From an uncultured Planctomycetia bacterium (GTDB lineage Bacteria; Omnitrophota; Gorgyraeia; Gorgyraeales; Gorgyraeaceae), in NCBI GenBank assembly GCA_964415355.1, contig CAYPYS010000004.1, forward strand, positions 27,220 to 91,219: 64,000 nucleotides of DNA. The letters are read 5' to 3'. The first letter of the stretch is position 1; every line of letters begins with the position of its first letter. Below, piece after piece: positions 21,805 to 51,500 of this stretch. Made by a program: the position numbers and the translations under genes. The notes under the pieces are model-generated. The model was not told the DNA's origin, did not search any database, and saw nothing but the letters and a program-made list of their open reading frames with translations.

Positions 21805-21807
21805 AAA

Positions 21808-23424: not shown

Positions 23425-23425
23425 A

Positions 23426-26501: not shown

Positions 26502-27532
26502 GCGTCTTTCATCTATTTTTCTTTGCGTTGATAGGCCTTGCCTTGCTTATAGTCCACTCATATTTCAAGAGGGGGTTCCGTCTTACTTTGAACTTTTTCT
26601 TATTAGCCTTTATCGTCGGATTAAGAAAAGAATCCGGTAGTTTTCTACAGCCCATGTCGGTCAGGACGCAGTACCCCACGCCTTTTATCCATGCCAATGA
26701 CTCACCATTACTTTTCAATGTGATCAATATAACTATAGGCTGGATAATCGTTTTTTATCTCTCCTGGTATATAGCTGAAAATATTATTAAAAAAATACCT
26801 CATGTTAAAGAAAAAATATTCCCTGCGGCATTATTCGCCGGGGTATCCATAGCCGCCTTTTCGTATGCCATCGAGGCGACGGCTATAAATATCGGGTGGT
26901 GGAGATGGATGTTTTTTGAAAAACAATTTTCCGGATTTCTGGTGGGCGGCGTTCATTTCTTTGCACTCAACGCCTGGTTCTCTTTTGGCCTTCACTTCTT
27001 AGTCCCTTTCTTTTTGATAGAGTGTTCGAAGTTTCGCAAGGCGAGCTGGAAATGCATATTCTTTCTCATCCCGTTCTCGAGGACATGCACCATGCTTTTT
27101 CTCGGCTCGCACATACATCGCAGTATACATGAATTCATCTTCTTTCTTGTATTAATAATACTGGTATTTATCCAACCATTACAGTTTAATTACCCGCAAT
27201 TTAAAACAAGATTGTCCGTACATCCTTTCCAGCGCAAATTGATCGAAGCCATCCCCTTAGCCGTAATCCTTATGATCCTGATTGTGCTGAGTTATGTCGA
27301 TCTGATACAGATAAAAAATGTCTACTTGCTAGTCAGTCTTCTTCCTTTTATTGTGCTTGTGTTTTTAGCTTTTAAAAAAATACCGCCGCTATTGATCTTG
27401 TTGTTCACTGCGGCAATATTGTTAAGTCTTGGCAAGGCAGGGATCCCCGCATGCATGCCTGCATTGGCAGTTTTGGGCCTTTTGGGGATAGGAAATCTTA
27501 TGGCCAGCAAAAAATACTCCAAGGCTATATAA
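26498..27532 (+). CDS. polytopic membrane protein, family B (member 5)
   Basis: ATGA overlap with the ORF at 25500. HSYFKRGFRLTLNFFLL, GWWRWMFF, FLIECSKFRKASWK. Confidence 0.6.
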   Translation: MSVFHLFFFALIGLALLIVHSYFKRGFRLTLNFFLLAFIVGLRKESGSFLQPMSVRTQYPTPFIHANDSPLLFNVINITIGWIIVFYLSWYIAENIIKKIPHVKEKIFPAALFAGVSIAAFSYAIEATAINIGWWRWMFFEKQFSGFLVGGVHFFALNAWFSFGLHFLVPFFLIECSKFRKASWKCIFFLIPFSRTCTMLFLGSHIHRSIHEFIFFLVLIILVFIQPLQFNYPQFKTRLSVHPFQRKLIEAIPLAVILMILIVLSYVDLIQIKNVYLLVSLLPFIVLVFLAFKKIPPLLILLFTAAILLSLGKAGIPACMPALAVLGLLGIGNLMASKKYSKAI

Positions 27533-27537
27533 AATAT

Positions 27538-28926: not shown

Positions 28927-30407
28927 TAGATAAAATACGCCTTTTGGCAAAATCTATAACAAGGCGCACGGGCATGCCTTTGTATCTTATAATTATCTTT
29001 TCTTTGCTTCTCGCGATCCTTTTGATATTTGACTGGTTTGTTTCTGATCCTACGCGAGCAGCAAAAATAGATCGTTATATATTATTCTCTATGGCAGAGA
29101 CATCTCGTTTCAATTACGCAAAAGCTGCTATCTGTAATCCCCTTGTCTTTCTTAACCCAAACGCCAAACCGCTCTATATGATAATCGCCAGTATGTTTGT
29201 TTTTATTCTTCCGTTTGGCCTGATTTCCATTAAAATGCTAAATTCTCTGCTGGCAATAGGCATATTGGGGGTTACCTATAAACTGGTACGAAAAACAGGG
29301 TTAGATGATTTTCATGCCTCCATAGCATTAATACTAACATTGACCTCCCCAATGTTTTTCTTGCTTTCCATAGCGGCTTCTACAGAGCTACTGTTTTGTT
29401 TCTTTCTGCTTTTGGCTATTTGTTCCTTTTACGAAAAAAAATATTTTAATTCGGCTCTGCTAATATCTCTGTTGCCGCTTATACGGCAAGAAGGGGTAAT
29501 ATATTTCGCCATCTGTTCATATTTCCTTATAAAAGCAAAAAATGCAAAATACCTGTTTGTTTTACCAATCCCTCTGGCTATATGGATTCTTTTGAATCGT
29601 GTTCTATTGAGTCATTCTTTCGTTTACCCGTTTTTTGTCTTTGTGGATATGCCTGGACCGACCCCTGCTAGTTCAGTAATGTCCCTTGCAGAGCTAAAGA
29701 GCTTTTTGCCGCTGATATTTTGTCATCCTCTGTTTTTCTTATTCCCCATAGGGTTGATGTTTAAGGTGGCGGATAAAAACTATAGACCCATTGTCGTTTC
29801 ACTGATATTACACAGTATCTTCTTTATCGTCGCTGCTATTATACAGTATTTAACGATCAAGCACACATCTTACTATTTTCGCTATATCGTGCCTCTTGTC
29901 CCGCTTATGGCTATTATGGCAGCCACCCTTTTTAGAAAAGTCAAGGATAATGGTCTAAAAATCTCCCTTATTGTTTTAATATTTATTATTTCGCTTGGAA
30001 TGCTTGTCGCAAAAATTAACGCGTTCCAACAACATCCCAGAATTGTCAGCGAAAGCCTTGATGAGCAGGAAGAAAAATCCATCAAAGAAGCAACTGTGTG
30101 GCTGAACGATTATATGCAGAAAAACGGGCTTCGTCATATTTTTTATCCCGGGAACCTGGTAACGCATAAAATAATAAGGCGATTAAGCGTCTATCTGTCT
30201 TTTGGGGCAACAATGTATCCTGTTAAAGACTTTAAGGAGATTTACGACCCGATAACATTCAACGCCCTTGACAAAGACTTTGGAGATCCCGCATATAGAG
30301 GCGTGGTCCTGGTATTGGACCCTGAGAAGGAGGCGGGGTTGATTTCGGGCCAAAGAACGAGTTTCTTAAAAAAATTCCCCCTGGTTTCTATATATCTTCT
30401 TGAATAG
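28923..30407 (+). CDS. polytopic membrane protein (family C, member 2)
   Basis: Paralogue of the ORF at 18438. ATGA overlap with the upstream radical SAM gene. Confidence 0.45.
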   Translation: MIDKIRLLAKSITRRTGMPLYLIIIFSLLLAILLIFDWFVSDPTRAAKIDRYILFSMAETSRFNYAKAAICNPLVFLNPNAKPLYMIIASMFVFILPFGLISIKMLNSLLAIGILGVTYKLVRKTGLDDFHASIALILTLTSPMFFLLSIAASTELLFCFFLLLAICSFYEKKYFNSALLISLLPLIRQEGVIYFAICSYFLIKAKNAKYLFVLPIPLAIWILLNRVLLSHSFVYPFFVFVDMPGPTPASSVMSLAELKSFLPLIFCHPLFFLFPIGLMFKVADKNYRPIVVSLILHSIFFIVAAIIQYLTIKHTSYYFRYIVPLVPLMAIMAATLFRKVKDNGLKISLIVLIFIISLGMLVAKINAFQQHPRIVSESLDEQEEKSIKEATVWLNDYMQKNGLRHIFYPGNLVTHKIIRRLSVYLSFGATMYPVKDFKEIYDPITFNALDKDFGDPAYRGVVLVLDPEKEAGLISGQRTSFLKKFPLVSIYLLE

Positions 30408-30532: not shown

Positions 30533-30561
30533 TTGAATATACGACTTGCCCTTGTTATAAT
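30533..30561 (+). promoter_or_regulatory. consensus-like sigma70 promoter for dnaA (TTGAAT-17-TGtTATAAT), apparently leaderless
   Basis: -35 TTGAAT at 30533-30538. 17-nt spacer. Extended -10 TGTTATAAT at 30553-30561. The dnaA ATG lies at 30570. Confidence 0.4.
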
Positions 30562-30569
30562 GTGATGCC

Positions 30570-31907
30570 ATGACAGTCGACCTATCCAGTATCTGGGACA
30601 AAATTCTAGAAGAGACAAAGCAGGAAATAGGGGAGAGGGCGTTTGAAAATTGGTTCCGCCAGACAAAACTCTCGTCTATAACCGAGGAAAGCCTCGTGAT
30701 CGAGGTACCGTCTAATTTTTTCAAAGATTGGATCTATGACCACTATAGAGACACATTAAAGATAGCTATATTAAAGACTATCGGCAAGGTTATCCCTGTG
30801 CAGTTTGAAGTGAAAGAGCCGGCTGTTAAGCCCGGCCGCGCCGCTTCAAAGCAAACCACTGTCCCGGGAAAACCGATGCAGAAAAAACCTTTTTATCTAA
30901 ACCCCAGGTACACTTTTGAGGGGTTTGTAGTAGGACCGTCGAACCGGTTCGCCCACGCAGCAACCCTCGCGATCGCTGAATCGCCTGCAAAGGCATACAA
31001 TCCTTTGTTTATATACGGTGGGGTGGGGCTGGGTAAGACGCATCTAATGCAAGCTGCCTGTCATTACGTCTCTGATATGCATAAAAACATGAAACTGTTT
31101 TACACGACGAGTGAAAAATTCACCAACGAGCTCATAAGCGCCATACAGCACAGGACAACCGCTAAGTTCAGGGAGACATACAGGAATGTTGATGTATTGT
31201 TGATAGACGACATACACTTCATCGCTGGCAAGGAATCCACACAGGAAGAATTCTTCCATACGTTCAATTCACTTTACGACGCGCACAAACAAATAGTCCT
31301 GTCCAGCGACCGGCCGCCCAAAACCATACAGGGCCTCGAAGAAAGGCTAGTCTCCAGGTTTGAATGGGGGCTTGTCACGGATGTCCAGCCGCCAGACCTT
31401 GAGACCAGGATAGCCATACTAAAAAAGAAGGCCGAAAGAAATTCCGTTGCCCTGCCGGACGACGCCTTATACTTTATAGCTGAGAAAATAAAGACCAATA
31501 TAAGAGAACTGGAGGGCGCGCTTATCAAGGTAGTGGCTTATTCGTCCATGGAAAACAAGCCCGTGACCCTGGACTCTACAAAAGATATTCTTAAAGATAT
31601 ACTGGCGGAAGGCGACAAGAAAATATCCGTTGATCGGATACAAAAAAAAGTGGCCGGGTATTTTGACATCAAGGTCTCTGAGATGAAGGCGAAGAAAAGA
31701 CACAAGGAAATCGTCTACCCGAGACAGATCGCGATGTACCTGACAAGGGAGCTGACAACGCTGACCCTGCCTGATATAGGCGCGAGTTTCGGGGGGCGGG
31801 ACCATTCCACGGTCATACACGCCTGTGAAAAAATACAGAAGGATTTGAAGAAAAATCAAAATGTGAAGAACTTGATGAATCGCCTGATGACAGAGATAAA
31901 CAGCTGA
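30570..31907 (+). CDS. dnaA: chromosomal replication initiator DnaA
   Basis: AAA+ Walker A GGVGLGKTHL. Box VII/arginine finger region. C-terminal DNA-binding signature HSTVIHACEKI. Confidence 0.95.
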   Translation: MTVDLSSIWDKILEETKQEIGERAFENWFRQTKLSSITEESLVIEVPSNFFKDWIYDHYRDTLKIAILKTIGKVIPVQFEVKEPAVKPGRAASKQTTVPGKPMQKKPFYLNPRYTFEGFVVGPSNRFAHAATLAIAESPAKAYNPLFIYGGVGLGKTHLMQAACHYVSDMHKNMKLFYTTSEKFTNELISAIQHRTTAKFRETYRNVDVLLIDDIHFIAGKESTQEEFFHTFNSLYDAHKQIVLSSDRPPKTIQGLEERLVSRFEWGLVTDVQPPDLETRIAILKKKAERNSVALPDDALYFIAEKIKTNIRELEGALIKVVAYSSMENKPVTLDSTKDILKDILAEGDKKISVDRIQKKVAGYFDIKVSEMKAKKRHKEIVYPRQIAMYLTRELTTLTLPDIGASFGGRDHSTVIHACEKIQKDLKKNQNVKNLMNRLMTEINS

Positions 31908-36035: not shown

Positions 36036-36037
<2 letters not shown>

Positions 36038-36070
36038 CTTTACATTTCAACAACGTTAAAGTGTAAAGTT
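36036..36070. repeat. REP/MITE-like element, copy 2 (form A)
   Basis: Overlaps the gyrB TAA stop. Confidence 0.9.
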
Positions 36071-36094
36071 AAGCTATTTTTTAGGAATAATAAT

Positions 36095-39000
36095 ATGTAC
36101 ACGCAGAATGAAAAACTGATACCGGTTTATATCGAAGATGAAATGAAGAATTCCTATCTTACTTACGCCATGAGCGTAATAGTAGGAAGGGCCCTGCCTG
36201 ATGTCAGGGATGGCTTAAAGCCGGTCCACAGGCGCATACTTTATGCCATGATGGACCTTGGCCTGGAGCATAATAAGCCGTATAAGAAATCAGCGAGAAT
36301 AGTCGGAGAAACTTTAGGTAAATACCATCCGCACGGGGATACTGCTGTTTATGATTCTCTTGTCAGGATGGTGCAGGATTTTTCTCTAAGGTATCCTTTG
36401 ATAGACGGCCAGGGTAACTTTGGCTCTGTTGATGGCGACGCCGCAGCGGCGATGCGCTACTGCGTCAGCGGGGATTCTCTTATAGTTACAGAAAAAGGAT
36501 TAGAGAGGATAGGAAAAATATCGCATCATTCGGAAGTTTCTTTTAAAACCTTATCCGCGAACAATAACATAAACCATGTTTCAGAATGGTTTGATTCAGG
36601 AAAGCACCCGACAAAAACAATAAAAACTTATAGAGGTCTTAGTTTGCGCGGAAGCCTTAACCACCCTATTCTCACCTGGCGGAAAGGGGAAAAAGGGAAG
36701 CCGCAGTTCGAGTGGGAATTATTAGGGAAGATTAAAGAAGGTGATTATGCCGTAATCAGCAGAAGCAGTTTATTGTTTCCAAGAAAAGACCCTTCTTTAA
36801 GATCTTATCATCCGCAATTAAAGAAGGCCTGTAAAGATCATAAGCTTCCTATGGCTATGAGTACAGACCTTGCTTTTCTTTTGGGGGCGATAGTCTCAGA
36901 AGGCAATGTTGGCAAAAAGCATATAGGTTTTTGTAACAACGACAGCATTTTCATCAAGAAATTTAAAGCGAGTTTTAAGAGAGTGTTCCCTGATTGCAGG
37001 CTTCACGAATTCGTTAGAAAACCCGCGGGCTACACAAGAAAAAGTTACACTTCTTTGGAAATCCACTCGCTTCATGTTTTGGAATTTTTGAGCAATCTTG
37101 GGTTAAAACCGAGCAGGGCAAAAGATAGAGTTGTGCCGGAAATAATATTTTCATCATCAAAGAAATCTGTTGCCTCTTTTATAAGAGGATATGCTGAAGG
37201 GGATGCCAGTGTATATATGTCCTCTTCTTTAAAGAATATAGAGATATCTTTTATATCGGCCAGCAAAAAGTTAATGCAAGAATTACAGGTTTTATTGTTA
37301 AGATTTGGTATAGATTCTTCTTATAGATGGCAAAGAACAAGAAGTATTTTTAAATTATTTATCCATGGGCACACAAATCTCGATATATTTAAAGACCAAA
37401 TAGATTTTATTACAGATAGAAAATGCAACAAACTGAGAGAGATTTGTAAAAGAAATGAAACCGGCTGGGTTATGTCAAAGACAGATTTTGTGCCATACAT
37501 TTCTGATTACATTAGAAGTAATGGATATGCAGAAAACAGGCAATGGCTTGAAAGGCATAATATTGATAGATATACAAAGATAGAGAAGCATTGGGGAAAC
37601 TTGCAAAAAATACTAAATGAAAAAGATAAACAGCTGTATCAAATGTTGATGGATAATAAATATATATTTGATCCCGTAGTTTCTGTAGAAGATACAGAAA
37701 CGAGCAAAGTTTATTCTATAAAGGTGGACAGCGCTTGTCATTCATTTGTGTCAAATGGCTTTATAAGCCATAACACAGAAGCGAGAATGGACGCCATAGC
37801 GGATGAGCTGCTCGACGACATAGAAAAAGATACGGTAGACTTTGTCCCGAATTTTGATGAGTCTTTGCAGGAGCCCAGTATATTGCCGGCGCGGCTGCCG
37901 AATCTTTTAATAAATGGTTCGAGCGGCATCGCAGTTGGCATGGCCACCAATGTCCCGCCGCACAACCTGACCGAGATAGTGGATGCTATTGTAAAAGTGA
38001 TCTCTGACCCGGACGTCTCCATAAAAGACCTGATGAAAATAGTGAAAGGTCCGGATTTCCCGACAGGCGGCATTATCTGCGGCAGGGACGGGATAAAAGA
38101 GGCGTATGAAAAAGGCAGGGGCAGGCTGAAGCTTCACGCAAAAGCAGCTATAGAACAACAAAAAGGAAACAAGGAATCCATTGTCATAACAGAGATCCCT
38201 TATCAGGTAAATAAATCAAAGCTCATAGAAAACATCGCTGATCTGGTGCAGGAGAAAAAGATCGAGGGCATATCAGACATAAGGGATGAGTCTGATAAAG
38301 AGGGTATGAGGATCGTCATAGATCTGAAGCGCGACCAGAATGCCCAGGTCATATTGAACCAGCTGTATAGACGCACGCAGATGGAGACTACCTTTGGCGT
38401 GATCACGCTAGCGCTTGTCGACGGGAAACCAAAGGTCTTAAATCTAAAAGAGGTCTTAGAGCAGTACATAAAACATAGAGAGGTGATAGTAAGGCGCAGG
38501 ACGCAGTTCGAGCTGGATAAAGCAGAGAGGCGCGCGCATATCTTAGAAGGTCTTAAGATCGCAGTGGACGCGATCAATAAAATCATAAAGACGATAAGGG
38601 AGTCAAAGGATGCCAAGATAGCAAAAGACAGATTGATGAAAAATTTTGACCTGAGCGATGTCCAGGCCCAGGCCATATTAGAGATGCAGCTCCAGAGGCT
38701 CACGGCGCTCGAAAGGAATAAAATAGAAAAGGAATACATGGAGCTGATCAAGAAGATAGAGATGTTCAAGTCTATTTTAAAGAGCGAGAAAAAGATTCTA
38801 GAGATCGTGAAGAACGAGGTCATGGAATTAAAGAAGGAATACGGTGATGAGCGCAGGACAGAGATCGTTGCAAAAGTAGAAGAGATGGAGATAGAAGATC
38901 TGATCGCAGAAGAGGACATGGTCATCACGATCAGCCACGCTGGTTACATAAAGCGATTGCCGATCGCAGCGTACAGGCGTCAGAAAAGGGGAGGCGTGGG

Positions 39001-39841
39001 CGTTACAGGCATTGACATGAAGGATGAAGATTTTGTCGAGCATTTATTCGTCGCCTCTACCCACGAATATATACTTGTATTCACGAATACAGGCAGGGTG
39101 CATTGGTTAAAAGTATATGAGATTCCTCAAGCGAGCCGCGCAGCCAGGGGCAAGGCAATAGTGAATCTGTTGCAGCTTGGCCAGGGCGAAAAGGTTTCTG
39201 CGTGCGTGAGGGTAAAGGATTTCGAAGAGGGCAAATTCCTCGTGATGGCGACAAAGAAAGGCCTGGTCAAAAAGACAGACCTGATGTCGTATTCGAATCC
39301 AAGAAAGGGCGGCATAATCGGCATTACCATTGAAAAAGACGACGAACTTATAGAGGTGAAGTGGACTGATGGCAAACAGGAGGTAATATTTGCCACCAAC
39401 CAGGGCAAGGCTATTCGTTTTCCAGAGGTTCAGGTCAGAGATATGGGCAGGGGCGCAAAAGGCGTCAGAGGGATAGGCCTCGGCAAAAAAGACGAAGTAA
39501 TAGCAATGGAGATCGCGAGAAAAGATGCGACAATTCTTACGGTTACATCGCAGGGGTTTGCGAAGCGCACGCCTGTCGAGCAATATAGAAAACAATCCCG
39601 CGGCGGCAAAGGCATAAAGAATGTAAGCGTAACAAAGAAAAACGGAGAAGCAGTAGGCCTTAAGATAGTCAATGATAAAGACGAGCTTATGGTCATGACC
39701 GAGAAAGGCATGATTGTCCGCTGCTCTGTTAAGGACATACGCACTACTGGCAGGGCTGCCCAGGGAGTTCGCATAATAAAGCTTGATTCAGGTGACAGGG
39801 TGTCAGCAATTGCCCGTGTTATCCCCGAAGAGACAGAGTAA
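36095..39841 (+). CDS. gyrA: DNA gyrase subunit A, intein-containing precursor (mature length about 810 aa)
   Basis: AAMRY active-site Tyr122 is followed by an inserted 438-aa element ending ...SHN|TEARM. The remainder is canonical GyrA including the C-terminal beta-pinwheel repeats. Confidence 0.95.
36461..37774 (+). mobile_element. GyrA intein with LAGLIDADG homing-endonuclease domain (438 aa, gyrA-a insertion site after the catalytic Tyr)
   Basis: Cys1 ([10 protein letters not shown]). Block B LNHPILT. Two LAGLIDADG-like motifs ([26 protein letters not shown]). C-terminal ...VSNGFISHN followed by +1 Thr. Confidence 0.85.
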
Positions 39842-39874
39842 CTTTACACTTTAACGTTGTTGAAATGTAAAGTT
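39840..39874. repeat. REP/MITE-like element, copy 3 (form B)
   Basis: AACTTTACACTTTAACGTTGTTGAAATGTAAAGTT. Overlaps the gyrA TAA stop. Confidence 0.9.
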
Positions 39875-39890
39875 AGGAGCTCATTTCTAC

Positions 39891-39968
39891 GTCCCCATCG
39901 TCTAGTCTGGCCTAGGACATCAGATTTTCGATCTGACGACACCGGTTCGAATCCGGTTGGGGACGCCA
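39891..39968 (+). tRNA. tRNA-Glu (anticodon UUC)
   Basis: Manual cloverleaf. Acceptor GTCCCCA/TGGGGAC. Anticodon stem TCAGA/TCTGA with loop TTTTCGA. T-arm ACCGG TTCGAAT CCGGT. Encoded CCA. Confidence 0.85.
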
Positions 39969-40110
39969 ATCTTTTAACCCTCTAAAATCCAACCAGTTAT
40001 ATCTTAAGTCTAATCAGAAGCAGGAATAGCGTTAATCGCCGATAGCATAGGCTACACATTTATTGTTTAGCTCTCTTTTGATGTGTTTAGATATTTTTAG
40101 ACGCGAAATG

Positions 40111-40127
40111 GTCACTATTTGGTCACT
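40111..40127 (+). repeat. GTCACTATTTGGTCACT direct-repeat motif, left copy (candidate arm-type recombinase site)
   Basis: An identical 17-mer recurs exactly 2100 bp downstream. Each copy contains GTCACT twice. Confidence 0.5.
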
Positions 40128-40310
40128 GGACGTTAGCCCCCCTGGCCTGTCTACATTATTTCAGTACTTAAACATCCATGGAATTTTAGCCATATGGACA
40201 CTTTTTGGACACCAAGACCTGTCTCTGGGAAAGAAGAATTAAACGCCACTTCCGTAACTTCTATAAATACATAGCATTATAAAAACTAATCTTCAAAATC
40301 TTACAGCCCG

Positions 40311-40337
40311 GACATCAGGCTAGATATCTGATGTCCA
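40311..40337. repeat. inverted repeat GGACATCAG-N9-CTGATGTCC built from the tRNA-Glu/att core sequence
   Basis: Its arms are identical to the first 9 nt of the 58-bp direct repeat. Confidence 0.5.
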
Positions 40338-40347
40338 GGATCTCCTT

Positions 40348-40376
40348 TGTGTATATCACAATAATATGATATAATT
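40348..40376 (+). promoter_or_regulatory. candidate promoter TTGTGT-17-TGaTATAAT for the islet MBL-fold gene
   Basis: Extended -10 at 40368-40376. Similar architecture to the promoter at 42428-42457. Confidence 0.35.
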
Positions 40377-40388
40377 ACTATATAAATA

Positions 40389-40444
40389 GACATTTAAGCA
40401 GCATAGCCTTGATAATAGGACAAGGCTATTTTTTTGGGTGGATT
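40389..40444 (+). promoter_or_regulatory. conserved leader with terminator-like hairpin (ATAGCCTTG-loop-CAAGGCTAT + T7), ending 8 nt before the ATG; copy A
   Basis: About 55 nt alignable with 42467-42525 (AATAGAyAT..AAG..ATAGCCTT..GGACAAGGCTATTTTTTTG-8nt-ATG). Confidence 0.4.
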
Positions 40445-42181
40445 ATGATAAAATGTGGAAAAGTAGCTATAATGGTTGTTGTAAGCACAGCCTTTTTATT
40501 TACAAGCACGCTGCATTCTAACATATCTGCAGATACCTTGCGCCTTGAAGTTGGTCAAGGGGACGATACATTAGGGCGAATGGAGAAACTTTTGAAAACA
40601 AGGACATACGCTTATCCTGCCGGTGGCTTTGATGTAAGAGTTCGCAATCCTAATAACAATTATTATAACACTTCTCAAGGAGCTGTTTCTGTCGGGTTAT
40701 CTATGCAACATAGGTTATTATATCCAGATGTTGCAGATTATCCCACCGTAATTATTGCACCTAACGGAGATTGGACCGGCAAAGACGGCACTAATTTAAT
40801 GCAGATTTATTTTGCCATAGCATGTAATTTCTTCTTTCACAAAAGAAATGGAGTGGATAATCCAAAAACCACAATTGTGTGTAGGGCTGACCAGAAAGAT
40901 AGGATAATTGAGTATTTAAAGCTAGGCAACCCTTATTATTTGCCTAATAAGGCTAATTACCCCGAAGAGTTGATTAAGAGATTTGAGCGGGAAGCTATCT
41001 ATTTAGCAGATAGGGCAGTTATAGATGGGCAAATGCAAATGGCGGCACCATATCCTGATATGGTTACATTTGAGACATTCGATGAGAATTTAAATGAAGC
41101 AAGCATTGGGGATGTAGTGATAACAGATAAAAGAAATGGTACGTTTGCAGTTAATGATAAAGGGGAAGCAGAAGGCATCTTGGATGGTAGAAACTTGACA
41201 GAGCTCGAGTTAGAACTAGTAGGCGTAGAGCCTCTTTCTGATATACCAGAATTAGGAGTCACGTTTTTAGGAACTAGCAGTGGGATGGATGCAAATGGAT
41301 TGAGTAGTAGCCAAATTGTATGGGCAGGCGACCATCAGGTATTAGTTGATTTAGGGATAGCTACTGTTGGTGGGCTTAGGGCATTAGGTTTAGCGCCTTC
41401 CGATATTAGTCATATAGCTATTACTCATATGCATGAAGATCATGTTGCAGGTGCATTGCAGTATTTCCATTGGTGTAAGAGTATCGGCCATCCAATTCGT
41501 TTAATAATTGAACCTGGCATCTATGAGTTGTTCAAGGAACAGGCAAAACAAATATTAAATAATGACTTAGAGTCTGTTTATGATGTCGAGCTTGTCCCAA
41601 TAAAATTTTATGCAGCTATTGAGCTAGGCAAAGGAAGTGAAAAAGTTACAATAGAAGCTATCCCTGGATTTCACGGTACACCAGTGATGATGAATCGCTA
41701 TACTTACAAAGGAAAAACAATTAGCCATTCTAGCGATACTACATTTGACCCAATTCGTTTTGATAAGATTTTAGAGAACGACATGCCCGATAATATAAGA
41801 AAAGACTTATCGAGAGAGCTCGGGGTTGATAAAAATGTTCGCGTGTTTAATAAAGCTAGAGCAGATGAGCTTGCAGGTGTATTATTTGGGAGCAATGCTA
41901 CTGGAAACATGCCGTCCATTGTTATTTATGAAGGGGGCAATGCTGCAGCCTTGGGAGAGAATGCAAGCAATCATACAACGCCTTTTGCCTTTCAGACATT
42001 GACAGAATATGAGCAGAGGACAATATGGGTGAATCATGCTGCCAAATTGCCTGGAGACCAAGAGTTTCTCGTTAAACATGCTGCCCCAATAAGTACCTTA
42101 GCAGTAGATCTTAGGGAACTTACTGTTCAAGATGTAAATGTTATGTTATCAAATACTAAGGAGCTGCAGAGAAGCCTGTAA
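40445..42181 (+). CDS. secreted metallo-beta-lactamase-fold protein with about 300-aa N-terminal domain of unknown function
   Basis: Signal peptide MIKCGKVAIMVVVSTAFLFTSTLHS. HxHxDH motif (ITHMHEDHVAGA). Start chosen at ATG 40445; the ORF track's TTG at 40409 lies within the leader hairpin. Confidence 0.6.
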   Translation: MIKCGKVAIMVVVSTAFLFTSTLHSNISADTLRLEVGQGDDTLGRMEKLLKTRTYAYPAGGFDVRVRNPNNNYYNTSQGAVSVGLSMQHRLLYPDVADYPTVIIAPNGDWTGKDGTNLMQIYFAIACNFFFHKRNGVDNPKTTIVCRADQKDRIIEYLKLGNPYYLPNKANYPEELIKRFEREAIYLADRAVIDGQMQMAAPYPDMVTFETFDENLNEASIGDVVITDKRNGTFAVNDKGEAEGILDGRNLTELELELVGVEPLSDIPELGVTFLGTSSGMDANGLSSSQIVWAGDHQVLVDLGIATVGGLRALGLAPSDISHIAITHMHEDHVAGALQYFHWCKSIGHPIRLIIEPGIYELFKEQAKQILNNDLESVYDVELVPIKFYAAIELGKGSEKVTIEAIPGFHGTPVMMNRYTYKGKTISHSSDTTFDPIRFDKILENDMPDNIRKDLSRELGVDKNVRVFNKARADELAGVLFGSNATGNMPSIVIYEGGNAAALGENASNHTTPFAFQTLTEYEQRTIWVNHAAKLPGDQEFLVKHAAPISTLAVDLRELTVQDVNVMLSNTKELQRSL

Positions 42182-42210
42182 TACGAGTTATTATTAAAGA
42201 ATTTTTACCA

Positions 42211-42227
42211 GTCACTATTTGGTCACT
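42211..42227 (+). repeat. GTCACTATTTGGTCACT direct-repeat motif, right copy
   Basis: Identical to 40111-40127. Lies 76 nt before the right-hand 58-bp repeat. Confidence 0.5.
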
Positions 42228-42302
42228 AGCGATAATCTCCAAAATCATTATTTCATATAACTCACTATAAAATAATAAGTTACAATAACACAATCTCGTA
42301 TA

Positions 42303-42356
42303 GACATCAGATTTTCGATCTGACGACACCGGTTCGAATCCGGTTGGGGACGCCAA
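42303..42356 (+). pseudogene. tRNA-Glu 3' fragment (displaced att repeat; 3' 53 nt of the tRNA, no 5' half)
   Basis: Identical to positions 39916-39968 of the intact tRNA-Glu. The upstream sequence is unrelated to the tRNA. Confidence 0.8.
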
Positions 42357-42375
42357 TCTTGCCAGCCCCATACTT

Positions 42376-42410
42376 AACTTTACACTTTAACGTTGTTGAA
42401 ATGTAAAGTT
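42376..42410. repeat. REP/MITE-like element, copy 4 (form B)
   Basis: Exact 35-mer flanked by TA. Confidence 0.9.
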
Positions 42411-42427
42411 AAGGGCTTATTTTTTGC

Positions 42428-42457
42428 TTGCCCAATACCCCGCTATTATGGTATAAT
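42428..42457 (+). promoter_or_regulatory. candidate promoter TTGCCC-18-TGgTATAAT for the giant ORF
   Basis: Extended -10 TGGTATAAT at 42449-42457. Predicted transcription start about 62 nt before the ATG, as for the islet gene. Confidence 0.35.
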
Positions 42458-42466
42458 TATCAACAA

Positions 42467-42525
42467 TAGATATAAGAACAATATAGCCTTTATATCAAGG
42501 ACAAGGCTATTTTTTTGCCTAGCTT
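42467..42525 (+). promoter_or_regulatory. conserved leader with terminator-like hairpin (ATAGCCTT-loop-AAGGCTAT + T7), ending 8 nt before the ATG; copy B
   Basis: Alignable with 40389-40444. Confidence 0.4.
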
Positions 42526-45500
42526 ATGTTAAACTTTAAAAAACTATTAACTTGTAAGATCGTATCAGCATTTTTGGCTCTAACATTATGCCTTACATCT
42601 ACATGCTATGGCATAGAGCTACCTAAAAGATCCCACCTAAGAGCCCCGATTATGGGGAATTCCGAAAAAGGCAGAGAAAGGCTAGAAGATACCCTATCTG
42701 TTGTTTCTGGGATAAAAGATGCGGCAGATGCGAAGATTATCAAGAAAGACATCAGGAAGATATTATTAATAAATGCTGCGCCTAGGGCAAAGGGGCTGGA
42801 TGTCCGGCCGCCTTTTTCTTTGTATGGCTTATACATGGTTTTAAAGAAAGAATTTGGCGACAGGGTAGAGATTAAAGTTTTGGATCTTGCTATACAAGAT
42901 GCGGATTTCAAGATAAAAGATTATCTTATTCAAGAAGGACCAGATCTCGTTGGGGTTTCGACCAGTTGTTCATTTTATGCTGGTTTTGCCGAAGAAATGT
43001 CAAGAGTGGCTAAAGAAGCTCTCCCTGAGACAGTGTTAGTTAATGGAGGCATTCATGCCTCAGTGGTGCCATTTGAGGTTGTCCAAGAGAGCCCGCTGGA
43101 TTTTCTTGTTCAGGGCGACGGAGAGATTGTTTTCCCTGAGGCATTAAGGGTCATCATGGATGGCGATGGCGATATAAGTAAAGTGGGGGGTATTTGGTAT
43201 ATAGATTCTAATGGTCAGCCAGCTAGCACCGGTAATCCTGTGTTCCCGTCCCTTGACGATTTACCATTGGGTGTCCCAGATATATTGGACGAGGTAATAG
43301 GGAAATACGATTTATCATCTCCTTATTTTGGAGGAGAAAAGGCCTGGCAGTTATTTTGCAGCCGCGGCTGCCCTGTGGGGTGTAAGTTCTGCGCTGTAGA
43401 GGCTATATCAGGTCAAAAAATCCGCGCGATGAGCCCTGAGAGGGTTGTTGCAGAAATAAAACATATTGTAAGAAGATATAATATACATAATTTTAATTTT
43501 ACCGACGACTTTTTCACATTCAATATAGAGCGGGCCAGAAAGATCAGCGAGCTAATTCTCCAGGATCAGGAACTTTCTAATGTGAAATGGAAGATCACCA
43601 CAAGGGCTGACAGGCTTCCTGAGGATTTGGTAGAGATCATGGCAAGGGCAGGCTTGATACATATTAGTTTTGGAATAGAGAGCCCAGATCCTACAGTTTT
43701 AAAAGCGATACAGAAGAGCGCATCAGTAGGTTCTTATAAAAAAGCCACAGCGTTAGCGCATAAATATGGGATAAGGGTAAGGCATCTTTTGATGGCGGGG
43801 TTGCCTGAGCAGGATGAGCAGAGCATTGATAAAACAATAGATTTTTTAGAAGAGGCTAGGCCTGATGAAATATTTGTCGCTATATATACACCTTTTCCCG
43901 GAAGCGAATATTCTAAAAACCCGGAGTTATACGGCTTTCTACCCACTCATATAAGTTATGAAGATATGATTATGAGGGAAGTTGTACAAGAAGGAGACAT
44001 TGTTAAGCCGGTCGTCGCTGTGCCAACAAGATGGATGACAGCCGAAGAAATTTTAAGAGCGCGAGACAAAATCGTCACGGCGTTTGAAGAAATACAGAAA
44101 AAGGATATCAGGGGTCTCTTGAAAAACTTAAGGAGTCCTGATATGGAGACCCGCAAGATAGCAGCGCGGAGATTGCGTTACGTTAGTAGCGCACAACCAA
44201 AAACGTGTGAAGATGTGCTTGAAGAAGCGTCCCAGGGTTTAGTGGAAAGATTTCGAGATAAAAACAGGTTGGTTCTCGCGCTGGCTGGCCCAGGGGCTTC
44301 TGGAAAATTTACATTATACGCAGAACGTTTTAAAGCTTTCTTCAGTAGGGCTCTTTCTGTAACGCCGGATTCCGTTGTTATGCTTACCGACAATAATTAC
44401 CTCCTGCCGATATCAGAACGAAGGGATTTAGATTACTTGAGCAAATTTGAGATAGATAGATGGTTTAAAAATATAAGACTTTTACAAGAAGGGGAGGCGA
44501 TTTATTCGCCGCTATACGACAGGCTCAGGAACGATCGTTTAAGGATAGATGAAGAGATTATTGCGGAAATACTACAGAACAGAGGGGGTGAGTTGCAAGA
44601 CGGGACAGAGCCTGTCTATAGATTTGAGATAGAGGGCATAGAGATGGAGGGCGAGGAACTGGAGGAGATATACATCGACATCAATCCCGCAAATAATAGT
44701 GTCCGGGGTGAATTTGACATTCTGGAGAAGATTGATCCAGAAGGAAAGATTATTGTTGTCAAGGCAACCATTTGCTTATTGGACCCAGAGATAAATGATG
44801 GATACGATGAGAGATTTTTCGTGCAGTCAGATTTCAGTACTAGATTGATTAGGGGCGTGAAGCGCTGGAGAAAAGGAATGGGCAGGCAGCCGAGAGAAGC
44901 TGAATACATAGATATTCTCAAAAAAAGGCGGGCTATAGAGGATGATCCATATATTCTCCCTACAAGGATGGCTGCCAGATTTGTGATAGAAAATAATATT
45001 ACAACCCTAGAGCTAGAAGAAGCGCTAAGGGACAGCAATCCAGAAGTACGACGAATAGCGAATGAATTATCGGCATCTATGTCATCGTTGCATGCCTCTG
45101 GCAAAACGTCTCCCAAGGAATCACGCAATATTTACAATCCTCTGGTATCCCTGCGCGAAAATCGCGACCTGGAAACTTTTATTGAAATATGGCTGACCAG
45201 GCGCTATGACTCTTGGGGGCTCCGCGAAGACTTAGCAAAAGATATACTAGAGACCCTTTTACGTTACGCAGAGGATCTGGAACAAGCCATAAATCGTTTA
45301 TATTCGGAGGTCATTGATTTTGAGACTGATGAGGCGTGGCAAGAAGCATATAGCCGCTATAAGGAAGAGGTGAAATACGCAGATACCTATAATCAGATGG
45401 ATGTATATCTCGGGGGCCTGCCGGATGACTCAGTCATTGTTGACGTTGGGGCCGGGAATAATATGCTAGGTAAACTAATCGCAACTAAGCACCCCGGTTT

Positions 45501-48500
45501 TTCTGTGATAGGGACGGATGCGTATGATTATCATGAAGAACATGGCCTTGAGAATCTTGTCTTTCTCGTTCAACCAAGGCCTTTAAATATCCCATTGGAC
45601 GATAGATCCGCGGATATCGTGATTATGAATGCGATGTTACATCATGTGTCTCCGGATGACATGGGGGCTTTTTTACAGGAAATTCGCAGAGTGCTTAAAC
45701 CGGGAGGAAAAGTGATTCTGGTCGAGGACACTTACTCAATAACCCTCCCAGTTGAAAATGAGGCAACTGATAGTGAACTAACCAGCGAATTCTTAGACCT
45801 AGTTCGAGAACATGGCGATGCATTTGCGAAGCAATTTTTTGTTTTTGATGATTGGTATAGTAATTTGGTGGTGCATAAATGGCTCGGCATGTCTGTTCCA
45901 TACAATTTCCATTCAATGGAAGAATGGCAGGAGATATTTCAGTCCCATGGATTTGAGTTGGCACATGCGCGTCATACTGGTTTTCCGCAGAGGTCATTTC
46001 ACAAGCCGAATGTCGGAGTTCTGTTGTTTACAAATACCCAGGGTATTGAGGCTGATGCGATTACAATGGCAGCAGAAGCTGTGGATGAGTTTTTGGGCAC
46101 AGGGGAGCAGTTTGCCAAGCTTGCGCAGAAATATCCTTACGTAATTAAGATTGCAACAGAGGCGCTAGATAGGTCTGCTGCTGAATTTGCCTACGGCCTG
46201 AAGATCCTGGGCTCTTCGCCTGGAGAATTGCGCAAAGGAGTTTTGGAACTCGATGCGCTTTTCGCAGAGAGTCTTGGTCTTTCTGAGCCAGACACAGTCG
46301 ATGCCCTTAGGGAGATCATGCAAGCGGTCTTTGATAAGGCAGATCCCAAAGATGGCTATTTCTTAAAAGAGGAAAAACTTCAGGAGCTCCTTTACGAGCA
46401 TCCTCCGTTGCAGTTGTTAAAAGATGCAGGAATGTCCCTGGATCAGGTAATCCAGGAATATGGGGTCTATGAGGTCTTCAGCGTTGTCAGGCTTACTGAG
46501 CCGCTTGAGCATCTCGAGAGACTCTTAGAGGCGTATAACGCGCTCACGCCAGAAGATTTTGAAAAAAGGCCTCTCAAGCTGTTCGCGTTTTCCAGAGACC
46601 GTTATCCGGCCGCGCTAAAGATACTTGATAAAAAATTGACGGTTTGCAACGATAAACTCGCAGGGACTGTTATAGCAGTTCCATATAGCCCGGACCATGA
46701 TGAGCAATACGCTGCGCGCACGCTTAGAATATTGGGGCGGACAGTACACTATCTTTATGAGGTAATGACGTATTCAGATTTTTATGAGTCGCTTGTCTTG
46801 CTGGACCGAGAACATTTTGGCGCGCGTCTGGCAGATGCGATGCGGGGATACGGCCATCTCTACGGCGACGACCTAACGCTTAAGTCATCTGTTGTGCCAT
46901 TTTTCCACCCGCATCATCTACAGGAGATCATGTGCTGGGAATCCAGCGTGGAGTTATTGCATGTGCTTGCTTCAGACATACCGGGGCTGGATGGAACTCT
47001 TGCGAAGTATCAGAATACGCTCAGGGCGCTGGAGTTTTTGTCAGGAGAACAAGAGGAGCGCCTTGTGTCATTGGGCCTCCTGGACCTGATCTCCATCGCC
47101 ACGAAATCCTATGACACCACATACCTTACTCGCGAGATGGTCCGCGCGGATATCTATGCGCGGGCTGTAGGCGACAAGGGAGAAGCCTACTTGCTTGTAA
47201 AGCACAATCTTGATAAATTTGACATAGCAGATCTTTTGTCGCCAGATTCTGTGCGCAATCCTGCAAATCCAGAAACGCAGATCTTTAAAGATGTTCTCAG
47301 GGCAGTAAAAGAAAAGGATTACGACTTTTTAAGAAAAACCATTCCTGCGCTTATGCAGATGATGGAAGAGGCTCTTAAAGAAGAAAATGAAAATGCTGCG
47401 CATGACATCTATACCCACCTGATATATTCTATACACGCGTTAGAGAGAAGAGATGGCAGAAAAGGGGTTGAAAGATTTCATGCCAGGGCCGCGGCTCTTC
47501 ATATAGAGTTAAGAGCTCTGGCTGAAAAAATAAGCGCATCTTCGGAGCCTGTCTCTATCGAAAGAATCAAAGAGCTTATCATCGAAAATTTTATAGGCGA
47601 GCGAGAGTTAAGCTATTGGTCTATAGCTGAAAAACTGGGGATCAAGACATTTTATGTTATGGAGGCAATGGATGCGCTTGCAAAGGAAGGAAGGCTTATT
47701 AAGAGAGAGACCGATGAGGCGATTACGTATATCTGGGCTATTTCCGGCGGGTCAGGGCAAGACCATGAACAGGAGGAAGTCAAGGGCTCTCCTCCGGCAG
47801 TATTTGGCGTGTTGTCTGATGGTAAGCCGCGCACCAAAGAAGAAATCGCCGCCGCATTGAACCGCGCTGTCCGCACGATCGAGCCGGATCTCTACTTTTT
47901 GCGCGACTCTATGCTGCTTGATATAGGCAAAAGGCAGGGGAAAAACACATACGCTGTTAAAGCAGGGTTACTTAAAGAGCAAGGACTGATAACGATAATA
48001 CAGGAGATCCTGGATAGGGAATTTCAACCCGGCAGCATAACGAAAAATCTCAGAAATAGAGACAGGAGAGAAAGAATCAAAGAAACAATATTAGATGAGA
48101 TTACATCTTTTGAAAGCCCGAATGTCCTGGGCGATTTGTTTTCCGAAGACAAGCAGGCGGTCTACGAGGTATTCAGCGACGAGAAAGAGCTGGGCGATAT
48201 AGCAGAGTCGAGCAGCAGTTATGTGAGCAGGGTCGAGGAGAAAAAGTTTTTTACGCCTGCGCCTTTAGAAGGGTTGGCGGAAAGACACATTATGTGGGAT
48301 TTTATCAGGAGCCCGTCAACTGATCTGACGCAGATAATAAAAAGACAGGATTTATTAGAGGCCCTGGAAAAATCAAGCTCATTGCAGCTTGCCACTGATC
48401 TGAAAAACAGGTCTTACCTTATTCATAAAGGCATCGAAGGGCTTTTTGCCCCGGTTGACGTGAGTGAATATCATCGGGAGCCGGCCTTATATGCATACAG

Positions 48501-51500
48501 GCACGGTCACGGCGATACGCATTATATAAGGCAGCATGTAATGGGATGTCTGGATAGTATAAAAGAGGGGAAAGATGCTTTAGGTGAACTTATCGAAACG
48601 CTCTCGGGCATAGATGCGGTAATTATTAAGGAAGTGGTCGGAGTCCTTGAAAAAGGCCTGGCGAGCGTCGAGTATTTGAATAATGATTATTTTCTTGATC
48701 AAGCATATGACGAGTGGGACGCCAAGCGTTTAAGCGGCGGACTTAATAATAATTTAATGCGCCTGGGCGCGATGATAGAATTCGCGAATATTATAGTGAA
48801 GGACGGATATTCTAGGGCTGATTTTCACGCTGACCAGGCTGCCGGATACAAAGGGGGCTGGAATTTTGTGAGAGAGAAAAAAGGCGATAAGCCGCAGTCT
48901 CTGAATGATTCACCAAAGGACACGCTTATAACTATCCTGTGCGGGGCGAATATGGGAGGAAAGTCCTTTCATCTCGCGCAGAATTTCTATATGCAGCTCC
49001 TGGCGCAGAGCTTCGGATACGTGCCTGCTAAAAAAGGCAACTTCAGGATATACGATTCATTTCTATATCTAGACAGGGCGTCTACAGAGTCTTATTATGA
49101 CCTGAGCGCCTATGGTGTTGATATCACGCACTGGGTGGCGGCATTGGAGAAGATGACGGGCAGGACATTTATGCTCGTCGACGAAGGCCTTTCTACCACT
49201 TCGGCAGAAGATCAGTATTATATGCTTATGGCCATAGCAGAATACCTTAAAGGCCGCGGCGGAAGGACGCTCCTGGCAACGCATAACGAGGCATTTATAA
49301 ATAATTACACGCAGGAGAAAGATGCGGGTATATATCATTTCCCATTTACGATCGAGGAAAAAGAAGACGACGGCAAAGAGATAAACTATTCTTATAAACT
49401 GACACAGGGCCCGGGTGATTCCAGGGCGCTGGATGTGGCAGAGGCGTTGGGCCTGCCCGAGGAATTGATAGAGCTGGCCGCGCAATATCTCCGAGACGCA
49501 GTTAAAGAGGTAAGGCCGCTGGTTGATTCTGAATGGAGAAATCCCGAGCGTTATACAGAAGAGGAGCGCCAGGCCTTAAAGAAACAAGGATACAGAACGA
49601 TTTTTGGCACAGAGAAGGAAGAAGAGGAAAAGGCATTTCAATTATTCAGCAAAGACCGTGAATTTCAGCATTCGTTTTTTACAGGGACTCACATTGAAAC
49701 AGGAGAGAGATTTGAGGATAGAAAGTTCGGAGGGTGGCGTTACGATGGCTCTATGCTGGGAGGCTCTTTGATCCTTCAGCTATTGACAGAGAATAAGAGG
49801 CTTGAGCCACAGGAGATCCTGGAGCGCCAGAGGATGTTCGGGGAATTGTCCGAGAATGACAGGTATGAAGAATTAAAAGACATAGGATATAAGCTTGTCT
49901 GGATGCTGGAATTTATACCTATGTATTATATGCTAACAGGCAACAGTGGATTTTTGGATTTTAACAGGGTATTAAAACCACAGAGCTCTGAGCTGCGTCC
50001 TGGCAACGAGCGCATGCTGAGCACGCTGGAATACTGCATTATGTTTCTGCGGATGAACCAGAAGATATTAGGCGAAGATTTCTCCGAGAGATTCACCGAA
50101 TTACTCAAGAGGCTTGAGAGAGGCAAAGAGCTTTTGCTCTCCTACGAAGAACATGTTGCGAATCAGGACATACTTGAGATACAGGCATTGCAAGCGGATG
50201 AGTATGACCGAGAGATAACCGACGAGGAAATAATCAGGGAGTATCTCGAGCTTGCCAGCGATGAACCTGACAGGGAAAAGTGGCAGGGCCGGCTGACGCG
50301 GCGCAGGATAAGAGAATATATGACGTGGCTCAAGGAACATGATAGAGAGAGATGGAGAGAGATAGAGTGGTGGCATTATGACGGGAACCATCCTCTGAGG
50401 GAGCTGATAAATAAAGTCATGCTGGGGTATAGTGCGATATCGGTTATGCATGATAGAGGAGGGGATTTTGACGCAGAGCAGGTAAGAGATGAATTTATTG
50501 CGCTCGCTGATGAAGAGCCGCTGGAGGCAAAGGAAAGGTGGGGGCACAGGATAACAGTCGGGAGGATCCAGGAATACCTGGATTTCCTACTGCAGAAGCA
50601 TGGTCACTATACGCGCGATGAGAATACAAAGGAAAAGATAAATACTGTCAATGATTTAAGGCATAATGTCTCTTCTACGCAGAGAGGGTTGGGCATCGAG
50701 GATAAAGAGATTCGCGCGATATTCGATTCTTTATTCGGCATAAAAGGCGATTACAATGACAGGGTGTTTGATGACAGGATATTTCGTTCCCTTACCGATC
50801 TTTTTCAGGCGTTTGAGCATATCAATAAAAAGATGCCTCCGAAGTCGATATTCGAATGCGATTTAGAATCTATCAAGGAAGAGATACGCTTTTTTGCGAG
50901 CTATTATAGAGAAAGATACAAAGAAGCAGATCTCGCGTATGACAGTAGATGGCCCAGGCCTCTGGTCCTTAGTTTTATTTTGGAGATGCTCGTGGAAGAG
51001 AAAGACTGGATCCGGGAATTTCTCGGCATATTAAGAAGCTATGACTCAGTGCATCTGCATCAGATGGCTGGTTCTCTCGAGGCAGGATTCAGGGATCTTC
51101 TATCAATAATCAAAGAAGACTGGTGGTTTAGAGAAAGCAAGGTGCTTTTTGGCTTTGAAGAAGAAACCCTGGTAGAGCTTATTAGAAATGATATAAAAGA
51201 GGCCAGGAGATATTTTAAAAGACAGAAAGAAAATATAGAGCCTTTATGTACAAGAGAGGAACTGGAGGCAATCGAGCTAGAATTAGAACAGGGTTCCAGC
51301 GAGAAATTGCTTAACCTGATCGACAGATTTAACGGCATGGGGCCCGAGGCATTGTATGAGATATTAAATTCAGTTTATGAAAGCCAGATGGAAGAGATGT
51401 TGCGTGATTACGCCGGTGTCTCGCGCGCATACAGCAGGATTTTTGCAGAGCACTATTTTCTGGGAAGCAGTGAAAGCGTCAAGTATATCAGGACTATCTT

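Follow-up and report, generated by a model that had tools for sequence, protein, structure and literature searches.

Two genes in the 64,000-nucleotide (nt) stretch of contig CAYPYS010000004.1 analysed here, referred to below as the window, are each headed by a promoter-plus-leader unit in which an extended -10 promoter is followed by a short leader that carries a hairpin, a run of seven T and, nine nucleotides further on, the start codon. To judge from the sequence, the two units are members of a lineage-specific cassette that heads genes of exported, often very large proteins. The function that we tentatively assign to it, at a probability of roughly 45%, is that of a leader terminator set against the ribosome-binding region, which would throttle a strong promoter while its U-tract would also serve translation. 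An earlier note on the same DNA had described the pair, and both units are present where it placed them and with the architecture that it gave, except that the distance from the T-run to the ATG is nine nucleotides and not eight. The note had also called the shared module near-identical, which it is not: the units align at ~80% identity with a single identical block of 20 nt (AGGACAAGGCTATTTTTTTG). The parts of the two units and the genes behind them are as follows.

40353-40444, + strand: unit 1, promoter plus leader, ~95 nt
40367-40375, + strand: copy 1 extended -10, TGATATAAT, read from the sequence
40383-40402, + strand: copy 1 leader RNA, 5′ segment (AAATAGACAT...), partly conserved, its putative transcription start placed from the position of the -10
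40403-40429, + strand: copy 1 leader hairpin, predicted folding energy -9.4 kcal/mol
40403-40411, + strand: copy 1 5′ arm, ATAGCCTTG
40412-40420, + strand: copy 1 loop, 9 nt, ending in AGGA
40421-40429, + strand: copy 1 3′ arm, CAAGGCTAT
40429-40435, + strand: copy 1 T7 run (U7), its first T being the last base of the 3′ arm and closing the stem
40436-40444, + strand: copy 1 9-nt spacer, GGGTGGATT, with GGGTGG at -9 to -4
40445, + strand: copy 1 ATG
40445-42181, + strand: gene of a 578-aa MBL-fold protein with a signal-peptide-like N-terminus, islet-borne
42435-42525, + strand: unit 2, promoter plus leader, ~95 nt
42449-42457, + strand: copy 2 extended -10, TGGTATAAT, read as TTGCCC-18-TATAAT with TG
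42483-42510, + strand: copy 2 leader hairpin, predicted folding energy -6.0 kcal/mol
42483-42490, + strand: copy 2 5′ arm, ATAGCCTT
42491-42502, + strand: copy 2 loop, 12 nt, ending in AAGGAC
42503-42510, + strand: copy 2 3′ arm, AAGGCTAT
42510-42516, + strand: copy 2 T7 run (U7)
42517-42525, + strand: copy 2 9-nt spacer, GCCTAGCTT, with no Shine-Dalgarno-like sequence
42526, + strand: copy 2 ATG
42526-52758, + strand: gene of a 3410-aa protein with the N-terminal export leader, B12-binding/radical SAM, methyltransferase and MutS domain V parts

The window units constitute a real, conserved cis element that is not a product of chance. The pattern ATAGCCTT-N5-16-AAGGCTATTTTT matches twice in the window against 0.00 expected from 100 shuffles, and a covariance model of the unit built from seven copies scores the two sites at 101 and 94 bits, the next best site in the 64 kb reaching 18 bits. 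Within each unit the hairpin lies ~25 nt from the extended -10. The earlier note had taken the pair for a conserved motif rather than a recent duplication, and this is borne out by the relatives described below. Conservation is much stronger in the 3′ half of the leader than in the adjoining coding sequence, where the MBL-fold protein and the giant protein share 39% identity over residues 1-61 and are unrelated beyond.

Altogether 12 cassette copies were found on nine contig lineages, that of the window included, each directly before a start codon; in the eight further lineages the cassette again precedes several unrelated proteins, and its carriers are probably uncultured bacteria of the Omnitrophota. 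A metagenome scan with a stricter pattern returned 11 loci, seven of them ordinary terminators in unrelated DNA and four of them whole units with promoter, hairpin, T7, a GGGTGGATT-like spacer, ATG and an open reading frame (ORF) that starts like a signal peptide. The note's own test, whether the motif is an ordinary terminator genome-wide, gave a divided answer: the bare hairpin with its T-run does occur as a plain, often bidirectional terminator in at least 120 unrelated genomes, with no full unit among the matches listed, and likewise in seven unrelated metagenome contigs, whereas the whole unit does not occur in that way. Viral contigs gave no match. The same-strain contigs L121-L134 encode an identical MBL protein, the 18-nt core is present in L121-L125, and the one contig aligned (L126) is base-for-base identical over both units; these contigs give no comparative signal.

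The 12 copies agree in their geometry. First, CTA followed by T7-8, exactly 9 nt and a start codon is found in 12 of 12 copies (ATG in 11 and AAG in one, in L155), with U7-8 at -16 to -10 before the start codon in every one. Next, the closing stem AUAG(C)/(G)CUAU is retained in all copies except the reduced one of L150, and both arms persist although the stretch between them varies in length (5 to 38 nt) and holds different inner hairpins; the spacing of the arms ATAGCCTT and AAGGCTAT is 11, 12, 12, 11, 11, 11 and 13 nt. Finally, in the seven main-type copies the extended -10, as TGnTATAAT or GGGTATACT, lies 52-54 nt upstream of the T-run. The 5′ segment of the leader is only partly conserved, and the spacer keeps its length while its sequence varies (GGGTGGATT, GGGTAGATT, AGGTAGATT, GCCTAGCTT, GCCTACATT, GTACAGATT and AACACTATT); in copy 1 its GGGTGG is a weakened GGAGG at the usual Shine-Dalgarno position of this genome. 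A dimeric palindromic DNA operator is ruled out by the variable spacing of the half-sites.

The individual lineages differ in how much of the unit they carry. L137 has two copies before two consecutive genes in the same layout as the window, and one of them (L137a) has a small terminator at the end of its upstream stretch, directly ahead of the promoter (GCTTTATT-GA-AATAAAGC-GTTTTTT). The units at L137 420-560 and 1920-2033 (minus strand) and at L140 612-760 share ~130 nt more of upstream sequence, which is rich in G, A and T and poor in C. L154 carries a full variant with an extra G in the arm spacing. In L155 (9786-10005) the leader is tandemly duplicated as a ~110-nt unit behind a single TGGTATACT promoter; the first leader copy has lost its start (ATG to AAG) and is a pseudo-copy that keeps the first seven codons, the arms CATAGC and GGCTAT enclose 38 nt, and the 3503-aa gene has the spacer variant GCCTAnATT, as in window copy 2. 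L156 has a different hairpin interior followed by T8, and its second giant gene, operon-internal at 38 nt after the first, encodes the same N-terminal leader without hairpin or T7 and keeps a U-rich tract and the ACATTATGA context. The closest named orthologue of the MBL protein (L150, 62%, in a Candidatus Omnitrophota metagenome-assembled genome) has a reduced unit directly after tRNA-Leu, AGCCT-AGGAA-GGGCT-ATTTTTTT-GGGTGGATT-ATG, in which the hairpin is a minimal one of 5 bp with an AGGAA loop. A 55% MBL orthologue (L151) combines a canonical Shine-Dalgarno sequence (AAGGAG) with a decayed hairpin and a broken U-run, and L157 has no unit and a normal Shine-Dalgarno sequence. No unit was found before the more distant homologues, that is, relatives of the giant protein at 47% and 33% and MBL relatives at 52-55%, some of which look leaderless or have a normal Shine-Dalgarno sequence. 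A homologue search with the 611-aa ORF of L136 found only the ORF itself.

The proteins behind the cassette are likewise alike at their start. All of them are predicted to begin with a signal-peptide-like N-terminus, and most share a ~60-aa N-terminal leader of the form M-x-K/N-F-K-K, a hydrophobic stretch, and then YGI-D/E-L-x-K-S-H-L-R-A-P-L-x-G-N..ERL, encoded in the window at 42526-42705 and seen in proteins P0028-P0086. When the first 75 residues of the giant protein were compared with 1.84 billion cluster representatives, 61 matches were obtained, ~57 of which align at their own residues 1 to ~60; the matched proteins are 69-3503 aa long and show no relationship further downstream. L154, L155, L156 and L157, described above, are the contigs of four of these proteins. 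The N-terminal leader has no model in Pfam or NCBIfam. As the encoded N-terminal peptides are conserved in relatives, the first ATG is the true start of the cassette genes, and some automatic gene calls put the starts 9 and 42 codons too far downstream. The earlier statement that the leader leaves no room for a downstream promoter is upheld.

In the scheme that we infer, the strong extended -10 promoter would give rise to an RNA that folds, within its first ~50 nt, into a hairpin with AUAGCC/GGCUAU as its closing stem, with U7 directly behind it and the start codon exactly 9 nt further. Most transcripts would end at the U-tract as a ~52-nt RNA, and a fraction would read through into the mRNA. 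In that mRNA the U-tract, at -16 to -10 before a weak or absent Shine-Dalgarno sequence, could be the landing site of the ribosome through protein S1, and the net result would be a shared, throttled and potentially adjustable output for all cassette genes.

For termination speaks the perfect U-run, which directly adjoins a conserved stem and lies at a constant distance from a strong promoter. This is the geometry of a terminator: the stem has 8-9 bp, three of them G-C (four in copy 1), and U6-7 begins at the stem on the sense strand. In every copy read in the alignment, a mismatch of the upstream flank at the next position stops the hairpin before the U-tract. The hairpin itself is suggested by the complementarity of the arms and by the persistence of both of them where the interior has been exchanged, which fits an RNA hairpin abutting a U-tract. 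The operon-internal gene of L156, with neither hairpin nor T7, indicates that the element goes with a promoter-proximal position. Terminator-like tails are also found elsewhere in the window, namely GCTATTTTTT after a palindromic hairpin between gyrB and gyrA and GGGCTTATTTTTT (42413-42425) after the palindrome H′ upstream of promoter 2.

A number of observations weigh against this assignment. The hairpins are not of the compact, stable kind with a loop of ~3-8 nt and a G+C-rich base; their loops are 9-13 nt long (5 in L150 and 22-38 in L156 and L155), the base of the stem is AU, and the energies are a modest -6 to -9.7 kcal/mol. The consensus terminator scan did not call the leader hairpins, because the stems are modest and the loops long. 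Of the checks that the earlier note had proposed, RNA folding predicts the hairpin in the main-type copies, but the minimum-free-energy folds of L155 and L156 show no clean hairpin before the U-tract; covariation across relatives was not found, as the stem is invariant: six of its eight pairs show no change, and the exceptions are a C·A mismatch without compensation in one copy and a U-A pair turned into U·G in another. Neither an antiterminator alternative nor a sensor was found in the leader, where only ~20 nt precede the hairpin and RNAalifold gives the hairpin alone, so that regulated read-through would need an additional factor. A hairpin with U6 stands 12 nt before the ATG of the essential gyrA, with no obvious promoter in the 57-nt gap, and such signals may be leaky or may not terminate at all in this organism. 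Lastly, the distance of 9 nt to the ATG, which never varies, is left unexplained by a pure terminator and speaks for translation initiation no less than for termination.

The only competing pairing seen in the alignment is one of 3-5 bp between CCUU of the 5′ arm and the first AAGG inside the loop. A second AAGG in the loop, which could pair with the same CCUU in most main-type copies and in L154, is a possible handle for a trans-acting factor. No Rfam family matches the unit, as the scans of the window at gathering thresholds and of 39800-42700 at E<=10 gave only tRNAs and noise. Three other readings of the leader were rejected. Coding is ruled out by stop codons in frame in several copies, as a TTG-started ORF at 40409 spans the copy 1 hairpin and the same frame has a TAG in copy 2, L136 and L141; a second promoter with TATTTT as its -10 is unlikely, as this lies 11 nt from the ATG without TG or a -35 and would leave the conserved 5′ arm unexplained; and protein sites of the HutP, TRAP, ANTAR or RAT type do not agree on inspection with the irregular UAG repeats and the lack of a closed hexaloop. 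A separate feature of the spacer is that the last two U of the U-run and the following G form UUG in frame with UUA-UGA, which overlaps the main ATG (ATGA). The resulting mini-ORF of 4-5 codons (window 40434-40448 and 42515-42532), for which the AAGG of the 3′ arm 8 nt upstream is a possible Shine-Dalgarno sequence, is seen as UUG-NNN-NNN-UUA-UGA in 10 of 12 copies, not in L141 and L156, and probably arises as a side effect of the fixed spacing.

Lactococcus lactis abiD1 and Escherichia coli rnd provide precedents for the architecture, which is of a kind already known. In abiD1 a terminator lies shortly before the gene within a 76-nt translation initiation region; a 50-nt RNA is the product that can be seen, the full-length mRNA is made by read-through, and the poly-U of the terminator precedes the ribosome-binding site as an S1 site (PMC2661086). 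The combination of termination and translation features in this system is what leads us to favour, tentatively, a leader terminator of dual role. The cassette shares with it a promoter, a promoter-proximal terminator-like hairpin just upstream of the gene, poly-U directly before the ribosome-binding site and a leader of less than 80 nt (~62-70 nt here), and a short transcript of ~50 nt with low-level expression by read-through is predicted. Unlike abiD1, where a second stem-loop sequesters the ribosome-binding site and the poly-U and is opened by a phage protein or by cold, no such stem-loop was found in the cassette, which has 9 nt between U7 and ATG and no conserved pairing of that segment. 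There is also no sequence similarity between the two, and abiD1 is a single gene, whereas the cassette is a multi-copy, cross-lineage element linked to an N-terminal export leader. Leader attenuators that depend on a factor and have no ligand sensor, such as the RAT-terminators of BglG/SacY and Bacillus subtilis pyrG, likewise have a terminator hairpin and U-run in a short 5′ leader, and their read-through is decided by something that acts on the 5′ side of the hairpin. In contrast to BglG/SacY, no RAT-like or alternative structure overlaps the 5′ arm of the cassette and, unlike pyrG, it has no G-run start; nor was a gene for a cognate regulator identified.

The strongest alternative, which we still hold to be somewhat unlikely, is purely translational: no termination would take place, U7 at -16 to -10 would be an S1-binding enhancer in place of the Shine-Dalgarno sequence, and the hairpin would keep the U-tract single-stranded and protect the 5′ end of the mRNA, much as in rnd. 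In the rnd gene the U-run reportedly follows a terminator-like hairpin. As there, the cassette has a U-run immediately upstream of a weak initiation site at a distance that matters; rnd differs in being one gene of one species with a canonical Shine-Dalgarno sequence and a UUG start, while the U-run of the cassette is fixed at 9 nt from the ATG before many genes, often with no Shine-Dalgarno sequence. The uninterrupted U-run upstream of the Shine-Dalgarno position at a constant short distance, in 12 of 12 copies despite the varying spacer, is what such an enhancer would look like, and a terminator U8 directly before the ribosome-binding site is known to raise translation in a distance-dependent manner (PMC3575828); the U8 enhancer of rnd was described by Zhang and Deutscher (1992, PNAS 89:2605, cited there and in PMC2176067 and PMC2661086). 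The spacers with a weak (GGGTGG) or absent (GCCTAGCTT) Shine-Dalgarno sequence, the decay of hairpin and U-run in L151 where a canonical one is present, the operon-internal gene of L156 with its U-rich tract and no hairpin, and the U6, AGGA and ATG of gyrA all agree with it. An enhancer, however, needs only A/U-richness (PMC2176067), while a perfect U7 abuts the stem in every promoter-proximal copy, as in a terminator; the fixed 52-54 nt between promoter and U-tract is not called for by translation, and the hairpin arms are conserved across lineages.

The earlier note had allowed for an RNA-binding protein as well as an attenuator. A target of a CsrA-type protein, which would bind AGGA(C) in the loop as well as another GGA at the ribosome site and so couple translation with secretion, appears improbable, and the best argument for a protein target, the conserved AGGAC loop, is weakened by its absence from the divergent L155 and L156. 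The motif A(A)GGA(C/G) ends the loop in nine of the 12 copies, L150 included, and TGGATT provides a second GGA 22 nt downstream in five copies as counted by reading; CsrA, a protein common in the neighbouring phylum Planctomycetota, recognises GGA that lies in a hairpin loop (PMC13443453, PMC7652899, PMC4894983), and all the putative target genes encode proteins with signal-peptide-like N-termini. The closest parallels are the CsrA-regulated flagellin leaders of hag in B. subtilis and flaA in Campylobacter jejuni (PMC4894983, PMC7652899), which also have a GGA in a hairpin loop upstream of the start of an exported protein and, as in some copies here, a second GGA at the ribosome site. These leaders, however, have no perfect U7, which CsrA would leave unexplained, and the GGA motifs are not universal in the cassette, the second being absent from seven of 12 copies, that of the window giant gene among them. 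Neither csrA nor a fliW context was seen among the Pfam-scanned window gene products, a set without ~15 genes at 11280-30407 and all short ORFs.

A small RNA gene whose ~52-nt product acts in trans, with the downstream gene passively read through, is highly improbable. A promoter, ~50 nt and a hairpin with U7 make up the standard layout of a bacterial small RNA gene, and abiD1 does yield such a 50-nt RNA, but the element always stands exactly 9 nt before the start codon of one class of proteins, its single-stranded 5′ part, where a seed would lie, is its least conserved region, and there are many near-identical copies per lineage. Very little weight is also given to a cassette devoid of RNA-level function that is copied by recombination or gene conversion, like the conserved 5′ ends of polymorphic effector genes, with the hairpin as a hitch-hiking relic of an upstream terminator. 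The ~60 N-terminal residues common to otherwise unrelated proteins, the tandem leader with its dead start codon in L155 and the additional shared upstream sequence of the two L137 copies are in line with such copying, which would nevertheless homogenise leader and coding sequence alike, whereas the 3′ half of the leader is near-invariant between lineages and the adjoining coding sequence falls to 39-55% amino-acid identity; the geometry moreover stays fixed even in copies with an exchanged hairpin interior. That the unit is simply the terminator of the gene upstream, standing by coincidence before the next gene, can hardly be credited, for although the bare hairpin is found as a plain terminator in unrelated genomes and metagenome contigs, the order promoter-hairpin-ATG in 11 of 12 copies refutes this reading as far as sequence can, every copy has its promoter before the hairpin and at a constant distance from it, the unit is unidirectional, and a separate hairpin or terminator already stands before the promoter (40307-40339, 42375-42425 and in L137), so that the leader hairpins are not terminators of upstream genes.

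Copy 1 and the MBL-fold gene are the only contents of a 2.3-kb islet (39974-42302) to the right of the gene order dnaA-dnaN-dciA-gyrB-gyrA-tRNA-Glu, with the following landmarks.

39891-39968: tRNA-Glu(UUC)
39916-39973, + strand: left copy of a 58-nt perfect direct repeat, the 3′ part of tRNA-Glu plus 5 nt
40307-40339, + strand: hairpin just upstream of promoter 1 (CCCGGACATCAG...CTGATGTCCAGG), -17.4 kcal/mol, z -2.85
42303-42360, + strand: the same 58-nt repeat on the right side, a remnant of the tRNA
42375-42425, + strand: palindrome H′ of the repetitive extragenic palindrome (REP)-like type, then GGGCTTATTTTTT, terminator-like, just upstream of promoter 2, -20.5 kcal/mol, z -5.1

The islet is real, with the tRNA 3′-end repeat of a tRNA-targeting element at both borders, and the earlier assignment of one copy to it stands: the repeat brackets copy 1 and its gene, and copy 2 with the 3410-aa gene lies just outside. 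No integrase or recombinase gene was found among the ORFs of at least 60 aa in 39974-42302, of which the MBL gene is the only one on the + strand; those on the minus strand, of 65-87 aa, lie inside it or at its 3′ end. The sequence GTCACTATTTGGTCACT is present near both ends of the islet, at 40111 and 42211, and nowhere else in the window apart from a degenerate third copy at 40197. On other contigs, too, MBL orthologues adjoin tRNA genes, namely tRNA-Leu(CAA) in L150 and tRNA-Glu(CUC) in L152. The hairpin at 40307-40339 has no T-run and resembles the anticodon-arm part of the tRNA-Glu repeat.

H′ belongs to a family of REP-like 35-nt palindromes (AACTTTACACTTTAACGTTGTTGAAATGTAAAGTT) with 12 copies at <=3 mismatches between 33506 and 63254 and a tandem 13th near 60765 (for example 36036-36070, 39840-39874, 42376-42410, 58441-58475 and 62207-62241). 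They occur in both orientations and, to the right of dnaN, in nearly all gaps between genes; several seem to overlap the TAA stop codon before them, no copy is present in the first 33 kb of the window, and a related palindrome is found at the start of contig L156. The 57-nt gyrB-gyrA gap (36038-36094) consists of such a hairpin, GCTATTTTTT (36070-36082), AGGAATAATAAT and the ATG; gyrA itself (36095-39841) contains an intein with a LAGLIDADG endonuclease domain at approximately residues 148-560. Upstream of dnaA (30549-30572, TTGTTATAAT-GTGATGCC-ATG) and of a distant giant-gene homologue in L146 (2411-2432, TGATATACT-TATTTTC-ATG) a -10 element lies 7-8 nt before the ATG, and both look like leaderless mRNAs. 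The part of the window to the left of dnaA (1-30400) has a G+C content of 0.34-0.41, against 0.39-0.48 in 30500-64000, a flat cumulative GC skew and no REP copies; with the exception of 9664-11121, its ORFs of 150 aa or more lie on the + strand, and they include two B12/radical-SAM enzymes, an asparagine synthase and a TPR protein.

Omnitrophota are uncultured, and their giant, mostly membrane-directed or secreted proteins have been proposed to go with a host-dependent or predatory lifestyle (bioRxiv 10.1101/2023.11.21.568195, 10.64898/2026.06.07.730766; PMC10066038); no mention of promoters, untranslated regions, terminators, CsrA, Hfq or NusG was found in the Omnitrophota literature searched. 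New here are the specific multi-copy, cross-lineage leader motif and its tie to an undescribed N-terminal export leader on many proteins, several of them giant. The cassette fixes the true start codons of its genes, and the searchable signature TGnTATAAT ... AUAGCC-loop-GGCUAU-U7-N9-ATG, together with the N-terminal leader, allows co-controlled exported proteins to be listed from metagenomes and offers a concrete RNA element for in vitro or metatranscriptome testing. It is also conceivable, if unlikely, that the cassette forms the cis-acting part of a dedicated switch, in which a trans-acting factor would read the leader as an attenuator or a translation gate and so co-regulate a whole regulon of exported, often giant proteins with the N-terminal leader. 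If so, the cassette would mark the 'attack' or surface-remodelling gene set of an uncultured and presumably host-dependent Omnitrophota clade.

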